From Thermoplasmatota archaeon (GTDB lineage: Archaea > Thermoplasmatota > Penumbrarchaeia > Penumbrarchaeales > Penumbrarchaeaceae), in NCBI GenBank assembly GCA_965234725.1, contig CBDDUX010000106.1:1-14176 (forward strand): 14,176 nt of DNA, given 5' to 3'. The notes beneath the pieces were generated by a model that worked only from the letters and a program-made list of their open reading frames with translations, searched no databases and had not been told where the DNA came from. How positions within the stretch are numbered: the stretch's first letter is position 1; every line of letters begins with the position of its first letter. This document shows positions 251 through 14,176 of this stretch, piece by piece. The translations under genes were made by a program, and so were the position numbers.

Positions 251-550
251 TCAAAATACTAAAGGTTGTTCATGAACTCTCAAGTCCTTCTTCTCCCCTA
301 TCATCGTAACACGGTTCTTCCATAACCCGTCTTCAGGACCGAGATCGATTATCATCACACTGTCCTCCTCCAGGTCCATCTCCTTCTGGACCTTGGTTAT
401 CATTCTCTGAAGGTTCGTGGATGAAAGAGTGCATTTGAAAATCGAATACTGAACGGCAATACCGAACCCTTTCATCGTCTTGTGAACATATCTCAACCTC
501 TTAGGATCGCAGATGTCATAACAAACAATGAAAGTGTTTATCAATATCAC
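251..550 (-). CDS. cas2: CRISPR-associated endoribonuclease Cas2
   Basis: 99 aa with VCYDI...KRLR...GFG..VQYSIF motifs. Start overlaps the cas1 stop; the true start may be TTG at 544. Confidence 0.95.
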   Translation of the reverse strand: MILINTFIVCYDICDPKRLRYVHKTMKGFGIAVQYSIFKCTLSSTNLQRMITKVQKEMDLEEDSVMIIDLGPEDGLWKNRVTMIGEKKDLRVHEQPLVF

Positions 551-2211
551 CTCGTGACGAAAGGAATGTATTCCTTCAATTCTCCGGCAAGATACCTTGA
601 CATCAATCTGACCTGTGTCTCGAATATCCTTCTGTAGGAAACCTGATATCCGAAGATCGGATGCTTGACTATCTGGCTTACTCTTCTCTCATATGCTCCG
701 TAGAATTTTTTTCTCCCGTCGGTTGTAAGATTGCATGCCTTCCCCTTGATGATAAAATCATTCTTGTCCAGCACATCATTGTTAATGAGCGAGATGACAA
801 CGGAATCAGCAATTATCGGTCTGAACTCCTCCATCAAGTCCAGTGCTAAAGCAGGTCTTCCGTATCTGGGTCTATGATAGAAACCAAGCATCGGATCCAA
901 TCCCATCGTCAATGATGAAACCGTGAGATCCTTGCAGAGAGTTGAATAAGAGAGGGATAGAAGTGAATTTATTGGATCTGTCGGAGGTCTCCTGTTCCTG
1001 GATTCGAAGTTGAAATCCTTCCTGAATCCATTCTTGATCATCTTGTTGAATGAACCGAAATATATTCTACCGGCATTTCCCTCAACTCCGAGAAGTGAAG
1101 GGATATCCTTGACCTTACTTAGCTTATTCAACGTCTTTTTCAATTCATCCAATGCTTTTTTACAGTCTTCCTCGCAGTTCCTCCTGAGCAAAGTTCTGCA
1201 GTTCTTGACCTTGCCTTCAACGATCTTCCTTGAAATCATAAGTCTTTTCGTTTTATCCATTGCATGTTCGTATTGCTTCATTCGAAGGTCCACATTTTTG
1301 TTGATCAGGGAAAATGAATATCCCTTGAACCAACCACCGTATGAAAAATAAAGGACTGGAATATTCCGATCCAATAGTTCTGAAAGAGCCTGTGTGGAGA
1401 CCTGGGCATTACCATATAAACAAACATGTGATATCTCGAAGGTTCTAACCTCTCCAACTTTCTCCCCCCTCTTCTTAATTACAAGGATATCTCCTTTCTT
1501 ACTGAGATAGGATCCCTGCTCCTGTAATATCAGAGGTCTGGTATCATCCCTCGATGGAAACATTCTCCTTATTTTTATATCCTCATTATCCTCGGAGAGT
1601 GCATTGATCTCATCCGGGAGACATATTGGAGCAAGAGAACATCCGTCGCATTTACTACTGTTCCTCAGGGGGGGTGGCATTACCCTCGTTTCCATGCTGG
1701 ATTGCATTCCGTTGATTGCTGTTACAAGCTCCAACAAAACATCATCATTGTATTCGATCAGAACCTTCTTGTTTGACTTTGCATAGTAAATGAATCCTTC
1801 ATTGCAGTCGTATCCATTGTCTTTCAGGATCTGAATATGTGCTCCAATCTGAACGATGTCAGCAGGCCATGCTCCGTCATCAGGACCCTTTCCTTTCTTG
1901 ATCTCAACGGGTGATACCTTGTCATTCTTTGATTCGATAATATCCAATCTGGATATGATCCCGAATTCCTCAGAAGATAATGTTACTCCCTTTGCCTTGA
2001 AATCACCAAAGACCTCATCCGGTCCTGGAAGTCTACCTTTCTCATCATCAACGGATTCATGCCGTCTAGATCCTTCAATCGTATGTTCGTTATCAACGAA
2101 ATCACCATCAACGAATTCGATATAGGCCAATCGTGGACAGTATCTGTATTCGTTGAGCATTCTAACAGGTATGAATTGTTCATCGAATAATCTCAATATT
2201 CCTTCTTCCAT
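547..2211 (-). CDS. cas1: Cas4-Cas1 fusion
   Basis: N-terminal Cas4: YCPR, RLDIIE, PVEIKKG, QIGA and the Fe-S cysteines KCDGCSLAPIC. C-terminal Cas1: GVEGNAG, RNRRPPTDPINSLLS, GFYH, LDLMEEFRP. The fusion is typical of type I-G. Confidence 0.96.
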   Translation of the reverse strand: MEEGILRLFDEQFIPVRMLNEYRYCPRLAYIEFVDGDFVDNEHTIEGSRRHESVDDEKGRLPGPDEVFGDFKAKGVTLSSEEFGIISRLDIIESKNDKVSPVEIKKGKGPDDGAWPADIVQIGAHIQILKDNGYDCNEGFIYYAKSNKKVLIEYNDDVLLELVTAINGMQSSMETRVMPPPLRNSSKCDGCSLAPICLPDEINALSEDNEDIKIRRMFPSRDDTRPLILQEQGSYLSKKGDILVIKKRGEKVGEVRTFEISHVCLYGNAQVSTQALSELLDRNIPVLYFSYGGWFKGYSFSLINKNVDLRMKQYEHAMDKTKRLMISRKIVEGKVKNCRTLLRRNCEEDCKKALDELKKTLNKLSKVKDIPSLLGVEGNAGRIYFGSFNKMIKNGFRKDFNFESRNRRPPTDPINSLLSLSYSTLCKDLTVSSLTMGLDPMLGFYHRPRYGRPALALDLMEEFRPIIADSVVISLINNDVLDKNDFIIKGKACNLTTDGRKKFYGAYERRVSQIVKHPIFGYQVSYRRIFETQVRLMSRYLAGELKEYIPFVTR

Positions 2212-2250
2212 AAATATCCAATATATTTTGACATTATAAATTATTTAAAA
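2212..2250 (-). promoter_or_regulatory. Putative archaeal TATA promoter for a leaderless cas4/1-cas2 transcript
   Basis: TTTATAAT (minus, 2233-2240) is centred ~25 nt upstream of the ATG at 2211, and there is no SD motif before the ATG. Confidence 0.55.
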
Positions 2251-2381
2251 TAGTCCTCACTATTCTCGGTTTTAGGAAAGGACTACTTCCACATTCCGTA
2301 TCATCTATTCCTTTCCCTGCTTTCCTCCCGGACAGGAAAGCTCCCGAACCGAAACAGGTTCGAATGAACCGGTGAATGTTT

Positions 2382-2867
2382 TCAGGAAAAATTACTATTC
2401 CACTCTTCCTCAGTAATTATCTTCTCGCAGATCGCACAGGTAAACGTTATCTTACCATTTTTCTCATGAGGAATCGCTTCTCTGTGCTTGCAGACCTTCT
2501 TCCTCTCTTCCTCATCGAGTCCAAGGACCTCGAAGATGGCTTCCTGGGCAAAGACATTCACCATCTCGGGGACCCTATCTTCCACCACATATTTTTCAAG
2601 TATCGAAATGGCAGGTTCTCCGATTCTCTTTACGGCTTCGAAACATGCTTTGTTGAAGATCAGGTATTCTTCATCAGTCTCATCATCATGCATCGCATCC
2701 AATTCAACCACATGCAGTATCGGACCAACTGCTTTCACACCGATCTTCGCAAGCTGATCTATACATCGATCCCTTCCCATTGCCTGTTTGCCTGAAAGAC
2801 CTTGAGCAATGCGGATGTACCTGATGAAATCTTTTTCAGATATCTCATCCCGGTAGAGCAAAGTCAT
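2382..2867 (-). CDS. Hypothetical HEAT-like helical repeat protein with C-terminal Cys/His (putative Zn-binding) tail
   Basis: Likely ATG at 2867 (MTLLYRDE), after GGAGAAGTGA and just past the upstream stop. Repeats LAKIGVKAVGPIL and VKRIGEPAISIL resemble PBS-lyase HEAT units. Tail is VCKH...TCAIC. Confidence 0.6.
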   Translation of the reverse strand: MTLLYRDEISEKDFIRYIRIAQGLSGKQAMGRDRCIDQLAKIGVKAVGPILHVVELDAMHDDETDEEYLIFNKACFEAVKRIGEPAISILEKYVVEDRVPEMVNVFAQEAIFEVLGLDEEERKKVCKHREAIPHEKNGKITFTCAICEKIITEEEWNSNFS

Positions 2868-2869
2868 GA

Positions 2870-3442
2870 TCACTTCTCCAGTTTTTCCATAAGGTCTTCT
2901 CTGAATGCATCCAGGGTCTCCTCGAAACCCCAACCTATGTTTCTTGTTTCTTCTATTTGCTTATCGATCCTGTCCAAAGCTCTGTCCATATCGATCTCCG
3001 ATTGATGGGCAACGATGAACTTGCAGGTCCTCTCGAACTGGTTCTCGATGCTTGTGTAATAACTTTCCCACATATCTCCGTATTCCATGGTGAATCCCAC
3101 TCCGTGCTCAAGGTGATCCAATATGATATCAACAAGGATCGCGGGATTGGTTGTAGAATTCTTTGCCAGGGTGATTATCTTTCCAGCTTCCCTGAGGTTC
3201 GGAGTTTTGGGACATCCATTCTTGGAAGTGGTCCAGAATATTGCATTAAGCCTTTCTTTTAGATCGGAGATGATGATCTTGTTTTCATTTCTCCCTTCTG
3301 AAACAGACATGGATAGTACAATTCGAACATCAGGGCTCGCTCTGTAGCATTTTCCAATCATGGTTAAAAGTTCCTTTTGATTTTTTCCGCTGATGCGTTT
3401 CTTGATTTCTCTCCATGGAAGGGGTCCTGTCTTATTCTCCAT
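2870..3442 (-). CDS. DUF6155-like protein
   Basis: Likely ATG at 3442 (MENKTG) with a GAGGAGG SD. Motifs KELL.MI..CY...P.V and GVGFTMEYGDMWESYYTS match my recollection of DUF6155. Confidence 0.65.
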   Translation of the reverse strand: MENKTGPLPWREIKKRISGKNQKELLTMIGKCYRASPDVRIVLSMSVSEGRNENKIIISDLKERLNAIFWTTSKNGCPKTPNLREAGKIITLAKNSTTNPAILVDIILDHLEHGVGFTMEYGDMWESYYTSIENQFERTCKFIVAHQSEIDMDRALDRIDKQIEETRNIGWGFEETLDAFREDLMEKLEK

Positions 3443-4325
3443 TTGAAACCTCCTCCTCAATTCCTGCCGGAATATTTTGTTTTAACCATTCAATGGCCTC
3501 GAGGGTCCAGAGATCACCCTGACTCTCCCAGTAGTAATATGCCTCATCCCAGTCTCCCGGTTTGAAGTAACCCTGCATCAAACTTTCAGGTTTCGGATGC
3601 CTTTTTTTCATAAGTTCCAATGCCACCTTGGGTTTGAAACTTACCGCATCTTTCAATTCCTTTTCCGCTTCAACTTTTAATCCGTTCAGAAAAAGCGCAA
3701 TGACCTTTCCGTAAATGATCTCGGGACTCGGATCATCCTTAAACCTGTTGGCAAGTTCCACCGCATCGGAGTATCTATCCTCTTCAAGGCACATTTCCAT
3801 CAGAATATCCCTGACATCCTGGTCGTCATCCGGATTATAATCGATGATCTCCTGAAATACTTCAAATGCTTCCTCGATCCTTCCATCATCGTGAAGAGCA
3901 AAAGCATGTCCATGGAGACATCTTAGAAAGGGCCTGTTATCGAGATTTGACCAAGGAATCCTGCTGCTTCCCCTTTTAAACCTTTTCGGGATCGCGGAGC
4001 GTCCGATCTCCACCCCCCTTTCCCAGAGCTTCCTGGAAAGGTCCTTGTTTTTCTTTCGATTTTCAATTATTGCAAGGTGATGAATTGCATCAATATGATC
4101 CGGGTTTAGTTTGAGCATTTTTTTCAATTTGGCCTTTGCAGATCCGAATTTCAACTCCTCTATGAGATCCAGTGCCGCTTCGAACAATTCGTAGATTTCG
4201 TCGGATGTATCCTGGTCCGGGAAGATCCACTCCCTGTCACCTATATTAGTAATTTCCAGAGGTTGATTATCTTGAATGATCTCATTCATACCGTTCCGAT
4301 TATTCCTTCTCCTCATTCCTTCCAC
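3432..4325 (-). CDS. Tetratricopeptide repeat protein (ST7-like W..LDNRPFLR family)
   Basis: TPR-like helices LKLNPDHIDAIHHLA and GRIEEAFEVFQEIIDYNPDD, plus WSNLDNRPFLRCL. Start uncertain; ATG at 4289 (MNEIIQ) is plausible. Confidence 0.75.
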   Translation of the reverse strand: MEGMRRRNNRNGMNEIIQDNQPLEITNIGDREWIFPDQDTSDEIYELFEAALDLIEELKFGSAKAKLKKMLKLNPDHIDAIHHLAIIENRKKNKDLSRKLWERGVEIGRSAIPKRFKRGSSRIPWSNLDNRPFLRCLHGHAFALHDDGRIEEAFEVFQEIIDYNPDDDQDVRDILMEMCLEEDRYSDAVELANRFKDDPSPEIIYGKVIALFLNGLKVEAEKELKDAVSFKPKVALELMKKRHPKPESLMQGYFKPGDWDEAYYYWESQGDLWTLEAIEWLKQNIPAGIEEEVSNGE

Positions 4326-4354
4326 ATCTCCCTGTCCGAATTCTCAAATCTCCT

Positions 4355-4915
4355 TTATTCTTCTGGTGTTATACCGAATCTAACATTCGATATCCTTGCC
4401 GTCAGAATCGAATACTCATTCTCTCTATATACCCCTCTTCTTTCCCATTCATCGGTCAATTCATTTCTAATTGCTACTCCCCTGGACCGCTTTTCTATAC
4501 GCCCCTCAGAGTATCCCTTTGATCTGTAGAAAGCTTTCATTCGTTTTATAGCCAGTTCCGGATCATCAATTTCCTGAATCCTCTCATATCCTACTTTTGC
4601 CAACCATCTCTTGAATGGCTCGGCCTTTCTGGATGGCATGGATTGTATAAGCCTGAAGATTGTCTCTGTATTTCCACAATCCGTTTTGTAAAATTTTCCA
4701 TCAGAGGATGGAAGTTTCAGTTGGTTACAATTTGTAACCACCTCACTCCCTTCCTTTTTCAATCTATGTTTTAGAACCTTCCAATAACTTCTTGGATTTT
4801 CACTTTCAGAAAGGATGGCAATAATATCAATAACAGAAAAAAACCATTGTTCCTCAAACCATATTCTTCGAACTGTCTTCCCCTGAAACACCACCATTGC
4901 TTTTTCTTTCCTCAT
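4355..4915 (-). pseudogene. Bro-N domain (phage antirepressor-like) protein, probably C-terminally truncated
   Basis: VRRIW...WFFSVIDII, YWKVLKHRL, RLIQSMPSRKAEPFKRWLAKVG and RNELTDEW motifs. ATG at 4915 follows GAGGTG. It stops at TPEE*, where homologues as I recall continue with YK..KGL..ENLRDHM. Confidence 0.7.
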
Positions 4916-4926
4916 TTCAAGCACCT

Positions 4927-5070
4927 CTAATTATCAATTCCGATTACGATAGTTCCTCCTCCGGCATTTGCAAAACCCACCATTTCTCTTGCCAGAGTTT
5001 AGTTTATCGACTGCTTGAACTCAACGAACTGACCTTCAGGTCTTCTGAGAATGAGTTCTCGATCCTTCAT
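4927..5070 (-). pseudogene. Schlafen AlbA_2 domain N-terminal relic (not in the ORF track)
   Basis: Hand translation gives MKDRELILRRPEGQFVEFKQSIN*TLAREMVGFANAGGGTIVIGIDN*, containing the E...VEFK and FAN..GG.I.IG..D signatures. In-frame TAA at 4999-5001; GAGGAG SD upstream. Confidence 0.8.
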
Positions 5071-5076
5071 GTATCC

Positions 5077-6501
5077 TTACTCCTCGGAGGGGACGAATAG
5101 GCCGAGGCCGCGATGTCTCCCCGCACCAACTGTTAATGGCCCATGAACTGGTGATTTCCATTTTATCATCACATGCATAGGCGTGAATCCCTTTAGATGT
5201 GCTGTCAACCTGTAGTCCCTGGGATGATACCCTCCATTGAAAAATGGTGCTTTCTGCAGGACAAAGAAATCGATATCATTCACATTGAACCCTGCCTGTT
5301 CAATGGCCTTAAGAAACAGTTTCTCGGCTTTGGGATATTTCCGACTGTCGTGGCCGGGTAAGATTACTGGTGTTACTGTTTTGAAGGCCCTTCCATATGA
5401 ACAATATCTCTCGAATATGTCATCTTTCCTAATCCTCTCTACCCGAGTAACCTTGTTACCAGATTCATTATAAAGAATGGCCGTGTCGATCTTCTCTCCA
5501 GCCCAACTTGCCTTGAAACCATCGTCTTCGTATGGTTCGGCTATTATGACCCGTCTAATGAGTCCATCTGCATTTGGATGGCCGATGGTTGGTAGAGGCA
5601 AAAACGAGAATCGTGGAGGTGTTCGTTCATTTCTTGGATCATGATGTCCAGCAACGTATAATTCACTGGATTCTTTGAAGCGCCATTCAGTCTTAGCAAT
5701 TTTACATAGATAACCACGAATCCATGAAGATACACGTACAGTGTATCTTGGATCAAAACTCGCCCATCGATCGGCTTCATCCGAGGGTTGTAATAACTTC
5801 AAACAGACTACTTCACGATAAGGCATTCCTTTAAGGATATATCCAGATTCCTTGTATACCGTTGGACGTTTAGGTGGAATGTATATCAGACCGTCGAACC
5901 TTTTCTGCTTGGATTCATGAACCATTACTAAATTTTCATATGATCCTTTATTGGGACAACGGAGTGATCTTCCTATCATTCTGGACGGAAGTATCTGATT
6001 CCCACGATAGGTTTCTATAAAAAATGAAACCTCATCATCGTTCAAGAATTGGCCATTTCCTGCTACGAGATCGATTCCCCATCCAAGAGTTGTCAGTTCC
6101 CTTGCATATTCCGCGATCTTTCCTGCATTTTCGATGTCCTCTGATTTGATTGGCCAGATGTAATGTAATGGTGTTTCCGGATCTTTGATTTTTATCGAAT
6201 TAATCATTTTTTCTGATAGCCTATCCTGTCGATTCGGTATAAAATCTGATGCATTATCTGGTACATATGTCTTAATCCTCATACTTCCATTTCCTATTGG
6301 GGGGTACAATATCTTTGGTGGATCAAGTGTCTCGAACCAGTGAAAAGCCCTATGGTCCAAACTATTGTTCCTTGCAGCGGTAGCAAGGATGGCCTGAAAA
6401 AGCCTCCATGGTGACGGTGGCCATTCGGGACCGTGATCACCCTGTCCATGGAAATATGGATCGAGATAGGTAATAGAGATACATAGGTTATCCATGTCCA
6501 A
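5077..6501 (-). CDS. csb2: Type I-G Cas5/Cas6 fusion Csb2
   Basis: PEWPPSPWRLFQA, LGWGID, LPTIGH, and the C-terminal G-loop GPLTVGAGRHRGLGLF. Confidence 0.93.
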   Translation of the reverse strand: MDMDNLCISITYLDPYFHGQGDHGPEWPPSPWRLFQAILATAARNNSLDHRAFHWFETLDPPKILYPPIGNGSMRIKTYVPDNASDFIPNRQDRLSEKMINSIKIKDPETPLHYIWPIKSEDIENAGKIAEYARELTTLGWGIDLVAGNGQFLNDDEVSFFIETYRGNQILPSRMIGRSLRCPNKGSYENLVMVHESKQKRFDGLIYIPPKRPTVYKESGYILKGMPYREVVCLKLLQPSDEADRWASFDPRYTVRVSSWIRGYLCKIAKTEWRFKESSELYVAGHHDPRNERTPPRFSFLPLPTIGHPNADGLIRRVIIAEPYEDDGFKASWAGEKIDTAILYNESGNKVTRVERIRKDDIFERYCSYGRAFKTVTPVILPGHDSRKYPKAEKLFLKAIEQAGFNVNDIDFFVLQKAPFFNGGYHPRDYRLTAHLKGFTPMHVMIKWKSPVHGPLTVGAGRHRGLGLFVPSEE

Positions 6502-6513
6502 TCACCCAATCAT

Positions 6514-7578
6514 TCAATCCTTTTTCGCTTTAGCTAATGCCTCTTTTGCCGATTTGGGATCGAATGTGGCAGTCCTTGAGTTTTCAATCCCGAATACTTT
6601 TGCTTTCTCCTGAGCGAATTCGAGAATCTTTTTACTATCAAGATCGACGTCCACTCTCGTACCGTCATTCTTGACAAGATTCCATGTGGATTTATTCTCA
6701 GGATCCTTTGTCAATTCACATCCCATCCTGAGTAAATTCTCTTGAGGTGCCGTGATTGCAACCAATGAGAGACCCAGTAAGTATTCCTGGAGTTCCCTCG
6801 TTCTATTTCTGTCCTCTTTCACAGTGTTCTGTCTCAAGGCGCTCAGGGAAAGTACTGATTCCTTTATAAGACAACTCTTCTCGGATAGGAGAACGCCCCC
6901 ATGACTTTTATTTGCAAGGGCATTCGCAAGTCCGACTGTAGATGCTTTTGCTGGTTTTGTAGCAGAGGCTTTTTCTGCTTCCTGTGCATCCTTCTCAGAT
7001 ATTGCCCCGGTTTCAGTGTAATCCGTTGGAACGAAATAGGTGGCTGAGCGAGTCAATGAATCCACGTTGTGAGCCCGGATCGTTGAACGGACGATTCTCG
7101 GAACCTTAGACCCTGTTCCACGTGAGTCCCAGCATCCAAAGACCAATGACGTTGGAGCCAGTTCTGCAAGCGCGGACCTGTCACCTTTTTCCGCCTTTTC
7201 GAACGCTGATTCAATATCAGATGATAGGTCTGAAAAACGAACCACCGCATCCGCGATCCTATGCCCTGCATCAAGAATATCGACCTCATCAATCGTCCCG
7301 TCCTTTTTCTCTACCTTTACCTTTATATGCGGAATCAAATCCAGGTAAGGTTCGTTCTTGAATATAGGCTCCATTCGATTAGCCTGTGAACCAACACTAT
7401 CCACCGTACAAATGTTTCCGACGACTTTGTCGTCTATTTTTATCGGATCGATATTGTAACCGATATCAGCATATGTGGGAGGGTAGATTATAGACTCCTT
7501 TCCCTCCACGGGTTTCAAGTTCTCTCTTATAACCAGCGCAACATTTTCCTTTTCTAATAAGGACTCCAATTCTGTCAT
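6514..7578 (-). CDS. csb1: Type I-G Cas7 backbone protein Csb1
   Basis: IYPPTYA, DSVGSQANRME, GHRIADA, LAPTSLVFGCWDSRG. Confidence 0.95.
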   Translation of the reverse strand: MTELESLLEKENVALVIRENLKPVEGKESIIYPPTYADIGYNIDPIKIDDKVVGNICTVDSVGSQANRMEPIFKNEPYLDLIPHIKVKVEKKDGTIDEVDILDAGHRIADAVVRFSDLSSDIESAFEKAEKGDRSALAELAPTSLVFGCWDSRGTGSKVPRIVRSTIRAHNVDSLTRSATYFVPTDYTETGAISEKDAQEAEKASATKPAKASTVGLANALANKSHGGVLLSEKSCLIKESVLSLSALRQNTVKEDRNRTRELQEYLLGLSLVAITAPQENLLRMGCELTKDPENKSTWNLVKNDGTRVDVDLDSKKILEFAQEKAKVFGIENSRTATFDPKSAKEALAKAKKD

Positions 7579-8372
7579 TTTTCAACCTCCAATGATACTT
7601 TTTTTGCTAAAGCAAAAGATTTATAACGACCACCCGAATCTCGACGATAAAGAGTGAATGAGTATCGACTGATTTCTTCCGGTAAAATAATAGTGTTTAC
7701 AATAGTGGAAGCAATATTAATATCTAATTTTACTTTCCAAACATTAAAGAAACGTTTATATCTTTCAACTTTTGACTCTATGGGATTAAATCGTTGCAAT
7801 CCGATCAAGGATAATAATTCTGTCAATGTATAAGTTGAAATTGAGTATAATTGCAAACTGTCATGCGAGAAACCTACATCTAGTTTATTTTCTGATTTTG
7901 ATACGTCAAATGATGTTACACTAACTGATGTCAATGCCCTATAATCAAGTATATTTTGATCAATCAATAAAGAATCTGGAATTAATAGAATTAAATCTTT
8001 AAGTATTATCCCAATATCCTGCCTCCCTGCCCATGTTTTGACACTTCCATTTTGAGGATATGGATTTCGCCAGTCAATGATTAAATTAAAAGGTTTGCCG
8101 ATAAAGACAGGGCCTTCCTTATCATTGTATTCAAGTTCCGTAAGTTCACATTCCTTTAGCTTAATAAGGATATCATTCAGCTTTACTGGATTATCATTTT
8201 GATCGTAGGCCTCTATCAGAAATTTCGTATGAACTTCATCGATATCCTCAAACCATCCCAATGCTCTTCTTTCACCAGTGGTCATTCGGTGTGCGAGTTC
8301 GAAGATACCGCAACAGGCGAAGACTTGCCCAGGATTACTGATATCAACAGCGACCTCGATGGTTGGATTCAT
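7575..8372 (-). CDS. cas8u2: Type I-G large subunit Cas8u2 (Csb3/GSU0052-like)
   Basis: N-terminal VDISNPGQVFACCGIFELA, then IDW...KTWAG and ELLSLIGLQRF. Lies between cas3 and csb1 with 4-nt overlaps on both sides. Confidence 0.8.
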   Translation of the reverse strand: MNPTIEVAVDISNPGQVFACCGIFELAHRMTTGERRALGWFEDIDEVHTKFLIEAYDQNDNPVKLNDILIKLKECELTELEYNDKEGPVFIGKPFNLIIDWRNPYPQNGSVKTWAGRQDIGIILKDLILLIPDSLLIDQNILDYRALTSVSVTSFDVSKSENKLDVGFSHDSLQLYSISTYTLTELLSLIGLQRFNPIESKVERYKRFFNVWKVKLDINIASTIVNTIILPEEISRYSFTLYRRDSGGRYKSFALAKKVSLEVEK

Positions 8373-11300
8373 ACCTCTTCCTCCATGTCAGAATCTTCAG
8401 AAGATGCGATTGCATCGGCCTGCCTTAGTAGAGATTCAAGATATGCTAGTTTCCACCACCCGAAACGTTCCTGCAATCTGGAATATCTCATCATGGTCTG
8501 GTAAACCGTATCCTTCATAACGGAATGGTCTGTTCCAGGCGGAAATGCTTGCTCCTCAAAATGTGGTCTTCCCCATCCGTGGTGAACAGATATCAGATGT
8601 AATATCAGATCTTTTTCATCACTATCAGATATCTCTTGGATACCATATGAATCGATCAAACTGCCGACCTCATGACGATAACCGCCAAGTTTTCTCCAGT
8701 CAACATTACCCTTTGCCAATGCTTCTTTCCCTTTTGAAGGATCGTGACCTGCAGCTGTTTGCCAGATATCATTTCTCTTACCATTGTCATGATATCTTGC
8801 AGCGATTGAAAGTGCCTCTCGAACCTTTGAATCAATCTCTAATGAGATACAAAACTGATTTATGATCTGATTTACATCTTTATTGTGTCTATCTACGGTT
8901 GGATATTCAGAGATGCTCTTATTTTTCTTTTGATTGGATTTCAATAAAACAAACCATTCCTCATCGATCTCATCATCCTCTGAAAACTCATTCATCCTTT
9001 TCGTCTGTAATTTGAAAACGGATCTCTTCGAATATCTTTTCTCAAGTTCTGATAATGAATCTTTAAGACTTTTCCATTCCATATCTTTCATTGATCCGTC
9101 ATCATCAAATGAGGTGAAACTCCATAGATCATTATATCGATTAATAGATATTCTTATGAGATCTTCACTTGATACATCGATGTTCTTATCCTTTTTTTTG
9201 GGATCGAAAAAACCAGAATCGTCCAATCCCCCTAATGTTGATGGGAAGATAATGGTTGCATACTCTAATGGATAATCCCCTGGACGATCTACAATCTCTT
9301 TGAGGATGCTTGTTTTGAAACTTCCGTTTACTGTGGCGATGATAACTGGAAGTTCAAGTCTTTGTTCATCGAATTGTTTTAAAAGTTTACTTCTGTTATC
9401 AGTACCGGTGTTTGTGATTTCATATGTAGGAATATGTAATCGTTCTTTGGTTATAATTGGATGATGCTTAAACCAATTGCTGATATCCATTTCCGGAAGA
9501 GGTGCTATCTTTTCTACTTCGTCCCTCCAGGCAATATATGTGTTAGGATATTCATCCTTAATACCATGGAGCCAGCTTTCCGGTTGTGGTCTTGCAGGAA
9601 GCTCTCTCAAAGATGTTTGAGACCATAGGTCTAGGAGGACATCGGTAAGTTCCATTTTTTCAACATCTGATGAGAATGCCTCTTTAGAATCTGCATCAGT
9701 TAGTATCTTTTTTACACTCTCGAGACTCATATCATCCTTGTTCTTTGATAAGATTTCAAACGTTCTGTATCTTGACCATTGAATTGGATCCTTCTTAATG
9801 AATTTCCCTTTCACTTCGACAATATTTTCAATCATATCTTTCTCTTTCATCCTATTCTTCTTGTCCATCGCATTATATCTCTCAGTTTTGTTATTCTCAA
9901 GCTGTTTTATTTTTTCTAAAATTCTTTCCTTCTTTTTTTGACTTGGAGTTGATTCAGCTTTTTTGGTCTCTATTGATATTTTCCCATTGACTTTCATGAT
10001 ATATTTTTCCAACCTTCCGATTTCCTTTTGAAATGATTCGTTAAAATTTTCGTTCTCTTCTTCTTCTACTTTCTTCCACTTCCTTCTCATCTCTTGTATA
10101 TTTTTGTCATAAACAAGATCAATTATCGAACCTTCACACTCCCCGAATCTGTTTACTCGACCTAAACGTTGTATCATCGAATCAAGAGTTGATAGGTCAC
10201 ATATAGAATGATCCGAATGCAAATCCATGCCAACCTCTGCTGCCGATGTGGCAACGAAATAGTGGGTTCTCTCGATCATTTCCGTTCCAAGAAATGGCTG
10301 CATTCCACCCTTTTCAAGTAAACGATCACGTTCAAAACCTCTGATCTGTCCGGTAAGCGTGGATATACGGTCATCGATGCCTTCCTTGATCTTTTTGCGC
10401 TCATTGGTAGGAATCGATCCATTTGGGTTTTCGTCCTTGTATTTTTGGATCTCTACTTCTATAAGTTCTTTTCTTATACCCTCAGATATCCTATGGGCAT
10501 CTTTCGGATCCCTGACGAATATCAGGACCCTATCCCTACCTGAATTCTTTTCCAGAGCCAGGTCTACTATCTTTTCCTGTAAGGGGTTACCTTCCTTTTC
10601 GATCTCATGAAATATTAGTCTCTTGGAAGCTTTCAAACGCTTCTCCGCAATGGGATGGTTCTGATCTTCTTCCGATAATGAAATTGATTTGTCAGAGGAA
10701 ACATCAGGCGTTGCAGATAGCTCAATTACCCGAATATTTGACATTGTAGACAATTCATCGTGAATCTTGGAATGATCCGCTTGGAATCTTTCTATGGAAC
10801 GAAGCAGCTTTCCGAAAGCTGGTGTCAGATGGGCCTCATCATGAATGAATATAGTATCACAGCCCAGTATCCCAGCATGTAGAGGTCTTGTTCTGCGGGA
10901 ATCACCATATCCTGAGAAGAGGAGCTTGCTTCCGATCATATCTACAGTACCAATGATAATACAAGGTTTGGTTGGATTCTTTTTCCATTCTTTATTATCT
11001 GCCAGTTCACCACGTAAAGTACTGACCGCAATGATATTCTCATCATCCTCAAGACAATTCATCTTTCTAAGTGCTTTAGCAACATCATACAGTGCGTGAT
11101 TATTATCATTGGAAGCTTCGTGGATTTTACTATTAATTAAGTTTACAAGTTCTGTTGCCTGATCTACAATTGTTCTCCTGTTGACAACATAAACGAGCTT
11201 TCTTGGTATTATTGAGCCTTTTGCCAATGCCAGAAGCCAAATTGGTATAACCATTGTTTTTCCAAGACCTGTAGGGATATTACAAGATGGAGGTATATTT

Positions 11301-11404
11301 CCTTCCTTCATTAATTCAAACAATCTAACCTGCCAGGGAAACGCATTTTCTTCTTCTTTCAATCCGGTTAGTCTTTTTAGACAACTTTCAAAATCAATTT
11401 GCAT
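8369..11404 (-). CDS. cas3: Type I-G Cas3 helicase with C-terminal HD nuclease
   Basis: FPWQ, PTGLGKT, YVVNRRTIVDQ, GTVDMIGS, DEAH, SAT and QRLGRVNR motifs. C-terminal HD domain: HN...YHDNGK...RHE...HHG...LAYLESLLRQAD. Confidence 0.96.
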   Translation of the reverse strand: MQIDFESCLKRLTGLKEEENAFPWQVRLFELMKEGNIPPSCNIPTGLGKTMVIPIWLLALAKGSIIPRKLVYVVNRRTIVDQATELVNLINSKIHEASNDNNHALYDVAKALRKMNCLEDDENIIAVSTLRGELADNKEWKKNPTKPCIIIGTVDMIGSKLLFSGYGDSRRTRPLHAGILGCDTIFIHDEAHLTPAFGKLLRSIERFQADHSKIHDELSTMSNIRVIELSATPDVSSDKSISLSEEDQNHPIAEKRLKASKRLIFHEIEKEGNPLQEKIVDLALEKNSGRDRVLIFVRDPKDAHRISEGIRKELIEVEIQKYKDENPNGSIPTNERKKIKEGIDDRISTLTGQIRGFERDRLLEKGGMQPFLGTEMIERTHYFVATSAAEVGMDLHSDHSICDLSTLDSMIQRLGRVNRFGECEGSIIDLVYDKNIQEMRRKWKKVEEEENENFNESFQKEIGRLEKYIMKVNGKISIETKKAESTPSQKKKERILEKIKQLENNKTERYNAMDKKNRMKEKDMIENIVEVKGKFIKKDPIQWSRYRTFEILSKNKDDMSLESVKKILTDADSKEAFSSDVEKMELTDVLLDLWSQTSLRELPARPQPESWLHGIKDEYPNTYIAWRDEVEKIAPLPEMDISNWFKHHPIITKERLHIPTYEITNTGTDNRSKLLKQFDEQRLELPVIIATVNGSFKTSILKEIVDRPGDYPLEYATIIFPSTLGGLDDSGFFDPKKKDKNIDVSSEDLIRISINRYNDLWSFTSFDDDGSMKDMEWKSLKDSLSELEKRYSKRSVFKLQTKRMNEFSEDDEIDEEWFVLLKSNQKKNKSISEYPTVDRHNKDVNQIINQFCISLEIDSKVREALSIAARYHDNGKRNDIWQTAAGHDPSKGKEALAKGNVDWRKLGGYRHEVGSLIDSYGIQEISDSDEKDLILHLISVHHGWGRPHFEEQAFPPGTDHSVMKDTVYQTMMRYSRLQERFGWWKLAYLESLLRQADAIASSEDSDMEEEV

Positions 11405-11405
11405 A

Positions 11406-11940
<535 letters not shown>

Positions 11941-12166
11941 TCTATACCTCTCGACTGGTACTCTATCCCCTCAAAGGACAGAGTATTTCCTAAAGGCTAT
12001 CAAGATATTAGGCCGTTTCCAATAATATTCCGATTCTGACCTTATTAAAACCTAGTGAAGTACTGTAATATGTCTTTAGAACCATTTGGACTCAAATCTA
12101 TATAGGTTTAGATATCAATCATTGTAAGTAGGACTCCGAAGAAGCCCTTTTCCTTTGCTCCTTTTC

Positions 12167-12266
12167 ATCTCTCTTGAAGGCATCCAGAAGAGATTCTTTC
12201 ATTTTGGGTATCGTTTTTGACAGTTTTGAGTCTGTTTTCAAACCCCGTCCCCGACACCATACCCTT
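12167..12266 (+). repeat. 100-bp direct repeat, copy 1, containing a tRNA 3' end at 12237-12259 (att-like)
   Basis: Matches 14052-14151 apart from three substitutions and compensating 2-nt indels. Contains TTCAAAC-CCCGT-CCCCGAC-A-CCA. Confidence 0.92.
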
Positions 12267-12340
12267 GATTACGGTACCCAGAGGTTAGACCCCGTCAGCT
12301 CAACAGTTTGTATCCGACACCCAACCATCCTGGAGAAGGG

Positions 12341-13264
12341 CTACCCGAGATCGATATCTTTCTGAATTTCCATGATCTCGTATTGAATTCTCTCTACCTC
12401 ATCCATCATCTCCCTTGAAGGATCAAATGTTAATAGAGCTAACTCAGAATCTGTTATTTTTAATTCCTTTGACAGGTCCTTGATCCTGATCGTTTCTTGG
12501 TACTTCTTGTATAGGTCTATCATGAATTCGGTTTTTTCAATGATCTTATCTTTAAAATCCATAAGTTCATAACCAAACCGCTTTTCAATCAGGTATATGT
12601 CGATCACATCTCTGAATTTGTATTTGATCCTTGTCAAAACCGCTCTTATTTTTTCAACAAATATCTCTCTGATATCATAACATGGCAAGCTAATAAGAGT
12701 TGAGTATGTTTTCCATTGGCTTTCATACAGAAATCTTATCTCTTCTGAATCAAGGTCCTTCACCAAACTATGAAGCTCACGATCATTCACTGGATACAGT
12801 ATCCTGTCCATGAAGTTTACCTCGATCTTTATTGTCGCAGGTACTTTGAGGATCTCCGAATCATATCCAAGATAGAATCGAGGCATCCTTCCTCCAGCTC
12901 CTATTATCACTTCATCCATGTCAGATTTGTCACCATTGAATTTGAAATCCAATTCATTAGCTATCTTCACTAGTTCCTCAAGGATATTGTCTATTTCCTT
13001 AGAACAATCCTTTTTCACCTGAGTATGATTTCTATTTTCCCATAGGTCCGGATTTTTCCATGTGAAATCTATATCCTCACTGAATCGATTATAACCGGTA
13101 TATGTCTTCACCAGGCATGTTCCACCCTTGAATACAAGGCTGTTTGAAAGATACTCATTCCCAGATATCTCATTGAGCAATCTATGGATCTGATAATCTT
13201 TTTCGATGATATCCTCTCTTCTGGGTCTTATTCGAGCGTTTAGATCCTGAAAGAATTTTTTCAT
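12341..13264 (-). CDS. abiEii: AbiEii/AbiGii-family nucleotidyltransferase toxin (type IV TA)
   Basis: IIEKDY, LVFKGGTCL.K.Y.GYNRFSEDIDF, KIEVN, EKIRAVLTR...RDVIDIY. Confidence 0.92.
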   Translation of the reverse strand: MKKFFQDLNARIRPRREDIIEKDYQIHRLLNEISGNEYLSNSLVFKGGTCLVKTYTGYNRFSEDIDFTWKNPDLWENRNHTQVKKDCSKEIDNILEELVKIANELDFKFNGDKSDMDEVIIGAGGRMPRFYLGYDSEILKVPATIKIEVNFMDRILYPVNDRELHSLVKDLDSEEIRFLYESQWKTYSTLISLPCYDIREIFVEKIRAVLTRIKYKFRDVIDIYLIEKRFGYELMDFKDKIIEKTEFMIDLYKKYQETIRIKDLSKELKITDSELALLTFDPSREMMDEVERIQYEIMEIQKDIDLG

Positions 13265-13893
13265 AAGATTTTCTCCACGGTTTCTTCGAATCTTCTTGGA
13301 AAATCTTTAAGATAACTTTTCACTTGATCTTTTTGAATGAATCTTTGATATTCCTGAAATATCTCTTTGATCTCATTGAGCTCTCCATTTTTAAGGTAAC
13401 TCCTGTAAGCAAGGTCAAGAATGGTTTTTATCCTATCAGAATACCAGATCCCATCTTTGTTAACAAGACCATGATCAAACTGTTTCTCACCTCTTTTTAT
13501 GAAAAGAAAATCCTGACCCAACACTTGGATGACCTTTGTCGTTCTGTATGAATCAGTGACCACATAATTCCTTAGGAAGTACTCATGCGTCATCAGGTTG
13601 AGTTTCAAAGCGGTTTCAAGGGCGAAATACCAATTTTTAACTCCTTTTCTCTCAAGCGCTCTTGCGACTAGTTGATAGGTGGAAAGGTCCTGTGTTTTTC
13701 TATACCTTTCTTCCATACTACGGATATAGAAGAAACCGCGAAGTATCCTTACGATATAACCTTCTTCCAGTAAATAATTAAGACTTCTCTTTTCATCCTT
13801 CCTAATCTTTCGGGCGATCTCGAATATCTCGTCCCTTGTTGCGATATTCTTGCCTTCAAGCAATAATTTCTTTGAGATCATTGAAGCTTCCAT
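13261..13893 (-). CDS. abiEi: AbiEi-like antitoxin / transcriptional regulator
   Basis: wHTH-like LLEEGYIVRILRGFFY, WYFALETALKLN...HE, and YSDRIKTILD. ATGA overlap with the toxin. Likely start ATG at 13893. Confidence 0.8.
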   Translation of the reverse strand: MEASMISKKLLLEGKNIATRDEIFEIARKIRKDEKRSLNYLLEEGYIVRILRGFFYIRSMEERYRKTQDLSTYQLVARALERKGVKNWYFALETALKLNLMTHEYFLRNYVVTDSYRTTKVIQVLGQDFLFIKRGEKQFDHGLVNKDGIWYSDRIKTILDLAYRSYLKNGELNEIKEIFQEYQRFIQKDQVKSYLKDFPRRFEETVEKIL

Positions 13894-13896
13894 GCA

Positions 13897-13946
13897 TGTC
13901 ACAAATACCGATTATGTCGGTGCTTATGACACTAACTATTATTAAA
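13897..13946 (-). promoter_or_regulatory. Putative operator palindrome and TATA box of the AbiE operon
   Basis: TGTCA-N5-ACCGA-N5-TCGGT-N5-TGACA (13897-13931), with TTTAATAA on the minus strand at 13939-13946. Confidence 0.6.
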
Positions 13947-13992
13947 TGATTACTGTAAATAGTAAGATGGCCCTTTTGATGAATGAGTGAAA

Positions 13993-14017
13993 GGTTCGAA
14001 TCCCTCCCCCCACACAA
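13993..14017 (+). other. Degenerate tRNA 3' end (old att-like site)
   Basis: GG-TTCGAAT-CCCTC-CCCCCAC-A-CAA has the spacing of T-loop, T-stem, acceptor strand, discriminator and CCA. No 5' half is present. Confidence 0.55.
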
Positions 14018-14051
14018 GAGGGGAAGGATCTCATTTCTTCAATCCAGATAA

Positions 14052-14151
14052 ATCTCTCTTGAAGGCATCCAGAAGAGATTCTTTCATTTTGGGGGTCGTT
14101 TTTGACAGTCTTGACTGTTTATTCAAACCCCGTCCCCGACACCATACCCTT
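14052..14151 (+). repeat. 100-bp direct repeat, copy 2, containing a tRNA 3' end at 14122-14144 (att-like)
   Basis: Copy of 12167-12266 offset by 1885 nt, with an identical 23-nt tRNA 3' core. Confidence 0.92.
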
Positions 14152-14176
14152 AGTTATACGACACCATATGGTTTGA

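Follow-up and report, generated by a model that had tools for sequence, protein, structure and literature searches.

How did a two-gene AbiE toxin-antitoxin cassette come to lie between two direct repeats, both of which carry the 3' end of a tRNA? The window analysed here is the entire contig C106 (14,176 nt) of the 114-contig genome bin G000, a Thermoplasmatota archaeon, and the AbiE unit lies towards its right end. The answer that we favour, and consider somewhat probable, is that the unit is an integrase-less cassette flanked by attachment (att) sites, moved in trans, in an island that was seeded at a tRNA-Met gene and grew by serial integration. The direct observations behind this answer are the repeats, the tRNA, an array of tRNA-tail copies, cassette-precise sharing between species, and a relative in which an integrase gene is accompanied by the same tail block and by an arm homologous to that of the window.

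A repeat search of the window returned one two-copy direct-repeat family of 105 nt (12167-12271 and 14052-14156), the copies being 91% identical and 1885 nt apart from start to start. Reading of the sequence located the same 23 nt, TTCAAACCCCGTCCCCGACACCA, in both copies (12237-12259 and 14122-14144); this stretch is called the tail below. The preliminary description had reported two repeats of about 100 bp with a tRNA 3' end at this spacing, and no 5' tRNA half before either. Both statements hold: ARAGORN found 0 tRNA genes in the window, hence no 5' half before either tail copy, and Rfam at E≤1 returned no tRNA there, its sole match being a chance-level one to IMES-5 (24 bits against a gathering score of 96).

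Between the repeat copies lie only two open reading frames (ORFs), overlapping and both on the minus strand, which correspond to AbiEi and AbiEii. The gene for the AbiEi antitoxin/regulator (13261-13902, minus strand, 213 amino acids) was recognised by PADLOC (149 bits, 4.5e-44), its Pfam AbiEi_4 score (20.8 bits) falling under the 25-bit cut-off, and that for the AbiEii nucleotidyltransferase toxin (12341-13264, minus strand, 307 amino acids) by both Pfam (PF08843, 102 bits, 6.1e-29) and PADLOC (AbiEii, 176.9 bits, 1.8e-52). The two genes overlap by 4 nt and are predicted to form one operon, AbiEi then AbiEii, as is characteristic of an AbiE toxin-antitoxin pair. AbiE is a type IV toxin-antitoxin or abortive-infection system, and the present genes show the same order, with an overlapping AbiEi regulator and AbiEii nucleotidyltransferase and nothing unusual in the genes themselves. 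No recombinase was detected within the cassette when the window ORFs were screened with Pfam and PADLOC, so that the earlier statement that a toxin-antitoxin pair, and no integrase, lies between the repeats is confirmed.

The source of the tail was sought among the tRNA genes of the bin. Run without introns, ARAGORN found 40 tRNAs in G000, none with the window tail; with introns allowed, an extra tRNA gene appeared on contig C75 (14887-15005). The Rfam tRNA model matches C75:14887-15003 (54.1 bits, E 5e-10), with an insert of about 45 nt beside the anticodon CAT. This tRNA-Met(CAT) gene ends in GGGTTCAAACCCCGTCCCCGACACC followed by T, and 22 nt of it, from the T-loop to two bases past the discriminator, are identical to both tail copies of the window. 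A host tRNA with the predicted 3' end is thereby found. The claim that the tail fits a tRNA down to its CCA stands for these 22 nt but not for the terminus itself: the gene encodes ...GACACCT, and of the 'CCA' in the window just 'CC' is common with it. Since the acceptor ends of the two other CAT tRNAs of G000 look like those of the initiator and of tRNA-Ile2, the intron-bearing gene is most likely the elongator tRNA-Met. The block fits the T-loop class of tRNA integration sites, reportedly defined by Williams in 2002.

The 16-nt core of the tail, AACCCCGTCCCCGACA (12241-12256 and 14126-14141 in the window), was then used as a probe. With at most one mismatch it has 14 matches in the genome as against 0 for a reversed-pattern control, a frequency far above chance. 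At up to two mismatches there are 20, one of which is the tRNA itself and 17 of which are displaced tail copies; matches on C6 and C38 have no arms and were set aside as chance. The displaced copies occupy nine contigs (C22, C44, C53, C72, C75, C85, C90, C92 and C106) and are co-oriented within every contig holding more than one. On C75 the array starts directly behind the tRNA with a ParE cassette (DUF7557/ParE pair, 15136-15602, with the core orientation), followed by a tail copy with two mismatches (15778-15793), a gene-less module of 237 nt closed by an exact tail copy (16031-16046), a second AbiEi/AbiEii pair (16149-17931), another exact tail copy (18188-18203) and the contig end. A tandem array of tRNA-tail copies, as had been proposed, is thus present behind the tRNA on C75. 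Large surface proteins, HTH (helix-turn-helix) regulators, MarR/FMN-reductase/DUF4386 sets and an ATPase/DUF234 protein make up the cargo between tail copies in the bin. Several contigs begin or stop at a tail copy, so the repeats break the assembly, and the island contigs would presumably form one continuous array.

One further gene in a cassette-type frame was seen on C22 (6548-6656, 7553-13990, 14088-14260), where a eukaryote-type single-chain acetyl-CoA carboxylase gene of 2145 amino acids is flanked by arm A (described below) and a core on one side, and by arm A and a hairpin module with a decayed tail on the other. Its homologue in the sister species G004 is 81% identical and stands at the far end of the array of that genome.

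At least four different sequences stand before the core among the tail copies of G000. The sequence preceding it in the window, arm A, was found by BLAST to recur on C53, C22, C72, C75 and C85 and in the related genomes G001 and G004. Most copies open with a GC hairpin and a T-run, the stems, compared by eye, varying between copies yet staying paired; the T-run gives way to a conserved block, whose short hairpin lies around GGCATCC, and the tail comes last. Copy 1 in the window (12131-12236, plus strand), delineated from the sequence, the BLAST copies in G000, G001 and G004, alignment, folding and a profile match in the relative G009, consists of a decayed GC hairpin and T-run (12131-12153), unflagged by a terminator scan, and of the conserved block with the small hairpin ATCTCTCTTGAAGGCATCCAGAAGAGAT (12167-12194), continuing up to the tail. 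We take it to be the distal (P-type) arm belonging to the element on the left. Copy 2 (14052-14121, plus strand) serves as the distal arm of the AbiE cassette; it has no GC hairpin and lies, up to 14112, within the block that is near-identical in G004. Single-strand folds of five arms gave z-scores of +0.72 to -2.89. The only structures in them are two local hairpins, both short, and in the stronger folds there is little or no pairing of the core.

Some copies of arm A contain in addition a 50-nt module with two hairpins (C75 at 18128-18177 and 15718-15767; G004:C13 at about 46500-46560), bracketed by the near-repeat ATCTTTGAG / AGTCTTGAG, which suggests a separate tiny unit of insertion or deletion. 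The first half of arm A also occurs with no tail copy, on C110, C33, C37 and C40. On the minus strand, arm A (window 12127-12207) starts a short ORF, MKESLLDAFKRD..., that is intact in some copies and broken in others, and in the tail-less halves at C110:1896-1970, C33:5163-5219 and C37:14706-14759 a G-run stands before the ATG. Arm A may be derived from a small gene.

The limits of the AbiE cassette can be given as follows. Tail copy 1 (12237-12259, plus strand), with its 22-nt match to tRNA-Met(CAT), forms the left boundary. Behind it comes a proximal (P'-type) end (12260-12340, plus strand), defined by alignment with C75:16047 onward, C85:6276 downward and G004, and common to the left ends of two other G000 cassettes, namely the AbiE pair of C75 and one on C85. 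It holds the partial core-like words tagaccccgtca (12286-12297) and ccgacaccc (12314-12322). In the 120 nt after cores the words CGACAC and CCCGTCA occur 4 times each over 16 sites as against 0.1-0.2 expected, a post hoc count (the words were picked after looking, and the sites are paralogous) that is a hint only. Tail copy 2 (14122-14144, plus strand) is at once the right boundary of this cassette and the start of the next, of which the first 32 nt (14145-14176, plus strand) are present before the contig ends. C106 (14142-14176) shares with C53 (1-35) a terminal sequence extending at least 50 nt after the core copy, whose continuation is in no contig of the bin. Because C53 ends in the same terminal sequence, the assembly graph forks there; one explanation is that two contexts lead into a single next cassette, the other that the population is a mixture.

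Within the cassette lies a second tRNA-like 3' fragment, GGTTCGAATCCCTCCCCCCACA (13993-14014, plus strand), which resembles tRNA-Leu-type tails and matches no tRNA of G000. It is single-copy in the bin at up to two mismatches, is present with one extra C in the G004 copy of the cassette, and across 37 genomes of the class has, besides the window, only one match, with one mismatch, in G026. It might represent what is left of a former attachment site, one used in another host.

Is this unit, then, a simple local duplication, or does it behave as a unit elsewhere? The sister species G004, of the same genus, is represented by 20 contigs, with its tRNA at the edge of C14; its contig C13 ends in a core and bears nine core copies (at most three mismatches) over about 17 kb. 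Window positions 12240-14112 are 99.3% identical over 1875 nt to G004:C13:48429-46556. For comparison, a housekeeping stretch of 4769 nt in the backbone is 91% identical between the two genomes, and the 16 other shared segments of at least 250 nt in the array region are 68-92% identical. Left of the core nothing relates the two genomes: G000 has cas3 and arm A, G004 another AbiE pair and a different arm. The identity begins at AAACCCC (12240), 3-4 bases right after the core differ, and the remainder is identical. On the right it extends through arm A, where G004 has the extra 50-nt module, and the next G004 core differs at two positions; the cassette after this right-hand core is a different one in each genome. 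Since the identity starts at the core and stops before the next core, it fits a unit of core, proximal arm, genes and distal arm. The preliminary description had allowed that relatives might show only a local duplication; what they show is a near-identical cassette with different neighbours. The surroundings are also variable: the ParE cassette, first behind the tRNA in G000, occupies the sixth interval in G004, and G003 and G001 have yet other DNA directly after the tRNA, the upstream side being syntenic in G003 and G004.

An identity this high between two species could come from a chimeric contig or from mis-binning, the cassette then being just a fixed local part of an island that is old and decayed. 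Each of the two genomes is a metagenome bin, and the assemblies break at the flanking repeats, as such an artefact would have it; in the likely source run the unitig depth of the cassette is 3003 against 2534 for the left flank, a 1.2-fold ratio that is not interpretable. The exact sequence common to both at the left junction measures about 18 nt only, however, which we judge to be below the word sizes usual in assembly. Furthermore, differences of its own set the G004 copy apart (13 mismatches or gaps, the 50-nt module in arm A and the extra C in the relic tail), and two other studies have runs that contain, at low depth, almost identical stretches of the cassette: four pieces of 151-153 nt with 0-1 differences in run X2 and a 269-nt piece of a 284-nt record with one difference in run X3. 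An artefact is accordingly very improbable in our estimation.

The same junctions bear on a second alternative, in which no dedicated recombinase is needed: arm A and the tail would be a conserved terminator or intergenic repeat, and the cassettes would have been swapped by homologous recombination after DNA uptake. This would suit the terminator-like GC hairpin and T-run with which arm A opens, the existence of its first half without a tail on C110, C33, C37 and C40, and the fact that no integrase was found on the island contigs of G000. Against it, just the 18-nt core is shared on the left with G004, which is very short and yet is the exact start of the similarity; all copies are direct, and the tail is the end of the tRNA at which the array starts in two genomes. 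We consider exchange of this kind quite unlikely.

A further context for the cassette was looked for in metagenome contigs, where 214 AbiEii relatives were found, the best being 55% identical. At the 80 loci that were kept there is neither a core (at most two mismatches) nor an arm A, records near G000 having possibly been left out of this set; thus no second context for the AbiE cassette is available there.

Which enzyme might have made the junctions? A six-frame search of G000 gave seven tyrosine-recombinase (PF00589) matches and one resolvase above the cut-off, all of them on contigs that have no exact core copy. Pfam scans of ORFs revealed no integrase on C75, C85, C53, C90, C92, C72, C22 (first 20 kb) or C106, nor in G004:C13:20001-56171. 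A Xer-like integrase of 310 amino acids on C44, about 560 nt behind tRNA-Thr(GGT) and 3.9 kb from a core with two mismatches, was considered and not linked to the tRNA-Met system; the core copy at that place has the opposite orientation, and no copy of the tRNA-Thr tail was found.

Among five relatives, G009, which belongs to another genus (g6) of the family, does carry an integrase gene (C69:3543-4709) between two exact tail copies. Its tRNA-Met (C69:4891-4774) is followed by the convergent gene for a tyrosine integrase of 388 amino acids and by five small ORFs, in an element of 4.75 kb. The integrase possesses a PF00589 domain (125 bits) and a SAM-like N-domain, and its best NCBIfam model is that of the archaeal XerA/integron-integrase (186 bits, short of the cut-off of 220). 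The element closes with a GC hairpin and a T-run, then about 100 nt, then a tail copy that is exact (38-23), and the identity block is 17-18 nt, the same as in the arrays of G000. An arm-A profile, built from seven copies without the core and without the tRNA-identical bases, was run on G009 with nhmmer and gave one match in 9 kb, at the distal end of the element (13.5 bits, E=2.2e-4). In G021, a fragment 55% identical to the C-terminus of the G009 integrase lies 69 nt from a tail copy. The putative link between integrase and array thus comprises one intact element and one fragment, both outside the genus of G000. The preliminary description had proposed a search for further copies and a nearby integrase: the copies were found, 17 displaced ones on nine contigs, but an integrase is linked to the tail only in G009. 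Exact matches to a 17-mer of the tail in viral contigs (two loci) have no tRNA and no similarity to G000 and were dismissed as chance.

If the favoured reading is taken further, the island would grow by repeated conservative site-specific integration at the 3' end of tRNA-Met, every integration depositing the final 16-22 nt of the tRNA once more, a stretch that begins within the T-loop and extends one or two bases beyond the discriminator. The 105-nt repeats would then be junctions, in which the distal arm A of the left element (about 100 conserved nt behind a terminator-like GC hairpin and T-run) meets the tail copy that opens the next element, and the AbiE unit would read tail copy, proximal arm, abiEi-abiEii, arm A. 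The crossover would fall at the left, T-loop edge of the core. As the unit has no recombinase, it needs an integrase supplied in trans or co-transfer with a neighbour that carries one; a Xer-like tyrosine integrase of the type of the G009 element could have moved it in trans, or it could have moved alongside such a neighbour. We infer that an integrase of the G009 class makes the junctions in G000 and that the AbiE cassette is transferred as a core-to-core unit. In four of 22 public runs, compared as contigs, neither a joint across 12257/14125, as a circle would give, nor one of an empty site appeared among the matches listed, contigs being unable to show that such joints are absent.

Several observations count against this reading. 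The window contig is physically unjoined to the tRNA contig C75, so its membership of the array rests on inference, and both G000 and G004 are metagenome bins. Mobilisation in trans presupposes a cognate integrase, and none was found in G000: none of the seven PF00589 matches in that genome (0/7) lies on a contig with an exact core copy, and the search for a homologue of the G009 integrase gave as best tblastn hits proteins only 20-23% identical, on C102 and C44, beside tRNA-Thr genes. At E≤1e-40 that integrase is present in one of 401 genomes of the phylum, G009 alone, and it was not found in viral contigs. The homology of the arms is modest, 64 of 113 positions matching in a multiple alignment of arm A with the G009 arm. 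The tail copies, moreover, have no inverted T-stem-like half-site on the left.

The main observation that this reading explains poorly concerns a family of small non-coding modules. Besides the locus behind tRNA-Met, it is found on the downstream sides of tRNA-Gly(TCC) and tRNA-Gly(CCC) (G000:C63:68169-68244 and C109:21115-21188), and is recognised by the hairpins ggttgagca...tgctcaacc and gcaaaatc...gattttgc and by the end ggaatcaaat. The modules behind the two tRNA-Gly genes each close with the local tRNA's own tail, and three tail copies stand behind tRNA-Gly(CCC). One family behind three tRNAs, each time with the local tail, is poorly explained by an att site that is borne on the element, and this too speaks against the reading that we prefer.

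It is what target duplication would give, and on such an explanation the tail copies would be target-site duplications of about 14-18 nt each, made by a transposition-type enzyme as it puts non-autonomous DNA into tRNA 3' ends. G000 has a candidate in a solo Cas1 of 407 amino acids (G000:C59:6-1226), which lacks a neighbouring cas2 and is located at a contig edge, the 3' end of tRNA-Leu(CAG) (2370-2456) being about 1.1 kb away. It passes the generic cas1 NCBIfam model only and, judged on sequence, is a candidate casposase. The 16-18 nt of the core are close to the 14-nt duplications of Methanosarcina casposons, which are described as tandem at tRNA-Leu (PMC4779613). Yet terminal inverted repeats were absent in all four units inspected (three gene cassettes and one gene-less module), whose scores of 12-15 compare with shuffle means of 13.5-15.6; the identity between the window copies and the tRNA covers 22 nt rather than 14; G009 has a bona fide integrase element that uses the same tail block; and there is no casposon gene in or near the AbiE cassette. 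We give little credence to duplication by such an enzyme, and retain serial site-specific integration as the preferred reading.

To the left of the AbiE unit, abutting arm A copy 1, Pfam identified a type I-G-like CRISPR-Cas operon (251-11404, minus strand) with cas2, a cas4-cas1 fusion, GSU0054, GSU0053 and cas3. It is broken by an ORF with a Bro-N domain (4355-4924) and a TPR ORF (3432-4325), and a short second DEAD-box ORF (11406-11777) abuts cas3. Among 23 relatives in the family the operon is present in one, G003, at 72-76% identity, and because of this scarcity it may itself be island cargo; it probably belongs to the same island as the AbiE cassette. No core-like word was found in the cas locus of G003 over 6.4 kb, including about 1.5 kb beyond cas3. 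The contig opens (1-37) with a GC-rich 37-mer, possibly a CRISPR repeat where the assembly broke off; a search of the bin with its first 30 nt, allowing up to three mismatches, gave no further copy.

The principle of an additive island that is seeded at a tRNA and holds integrase-less relics is already known from bacteria. The G000 island is like the tycheposon islands of Prochlorococcus, which are said to lie beside tRNA genes, repeated integrations pushing older elements inward; partial tRNAs and integrase-less remnants are scattered in them, the cargo is adaptive or defensive, and elements bearing an integrase are far rarer than the islands (bioRxiv 10.1101/2020.12.28.424599). The present host, in contrast, is an uncultured archaeon, its units, of one operon each, go down to 0.8-2 kb in size, and many have a common distal arm of about 120 nt; no integrase was found in the G000 island, and the sole linked integrase is Xer-like and in another genus.

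The cis-mobilizable elements (CIMEs) of streptococcal families of integrative and conjugative elements are DNA flanked by att sites, without integration genes of their own, which arises and moves by accretion, at the 3' end of a tRNA or other gene, with an element that bears an integrase. The AbiE cassette resembles them in being att-flanked, with an att-like copy on each side and no recombination genes; and a related autonomous element that uses the same att block exists in G009, the homology being modest. Unlike CIMEs, the G000 cassettes have no known conjugative partner and form many stacked units rather than one or two. The ssrA islands of Dehalococcoides are reportedly tandem stacks with repeated copies of a gene 3' end in which each element has its own integrase, whereas the G000 units carry none. 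Family 2 casposons of Methanosarcina are tandem elements at tRNA-Leu split by a shared copy of the tRNA 3' end (PMC4779613). The likeness extends to tandem units separated by a tRNA 3' end and to the solo Cas1 beside tRNA-Leu in G000; the G000 cassettes differ in having no terminal inverted repeats, no Cas1 or PolB, and an identity block longer than 14 nt.

Could the tRNA-Met locus instead be an integron-like cassette platform, with the tail as attI, arm A plus tail as attC, and a rare Xer-like integrase acting in trans? The array is like an integron in that small cassettes, mostly of a single operon and rich in toxin-antitoxin pairs, are stacked in the chromosome, each ending in a conserved unit resembling a recombination site, and the linked G009 integrase scores on the XerA/integron-integrase model. 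The repeated site of the G000 array is, however, a tRNA tail. No intI was found at the array head, a recombinase being absent both from the 14.8 kb of C75 upstream of the tRNA and from G004:C13:20001-56171, and folds of five arms gave no attC-like long imperfect palindrome in arm A. Nor are the cassette genes co-oriented: the AbiE genes run against the core orientation and the ParE pair of C75 runs with it. In the strict sense, the earlier suggestion of a possibly integron-like array therefore fails, for want of an adjacent integrase, an attC-like fold and a uniform gene orientation, and we look on such a platform as doubtful. If it were true, small single-operon cassettes (toxin-antitoxin, defence, even a whole CRISPR-Cas operon) would be the normal mobile unit, excised as circles, reinserted and crossing species as core-to-core units.

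What is distinct in the present island is its fine grain, with units of 0.8-2 kb that each have their own tail, an arm common to unrelated cargo, no island integrase, and a near-identical unit between species. The tail copies delimit cassettes, and the unknown genes enclosed by them become a place to look for new defence functions. With long reads, they can also help to close the island. In addition, they match a candidate integrase to its att site, a pair that might be made into a genetic tool for the phylum, which is not known to have one. For these uncultured sediment archaea, the locus offers a base-pair view of how AbiE, ParE and perhaps an entire CRISPR-Cas operon, all of them defence genes, are packaged and exchanged, in units that are bounded by a tRNA tail and can be near-identical in species whose backbones differ by 9%.

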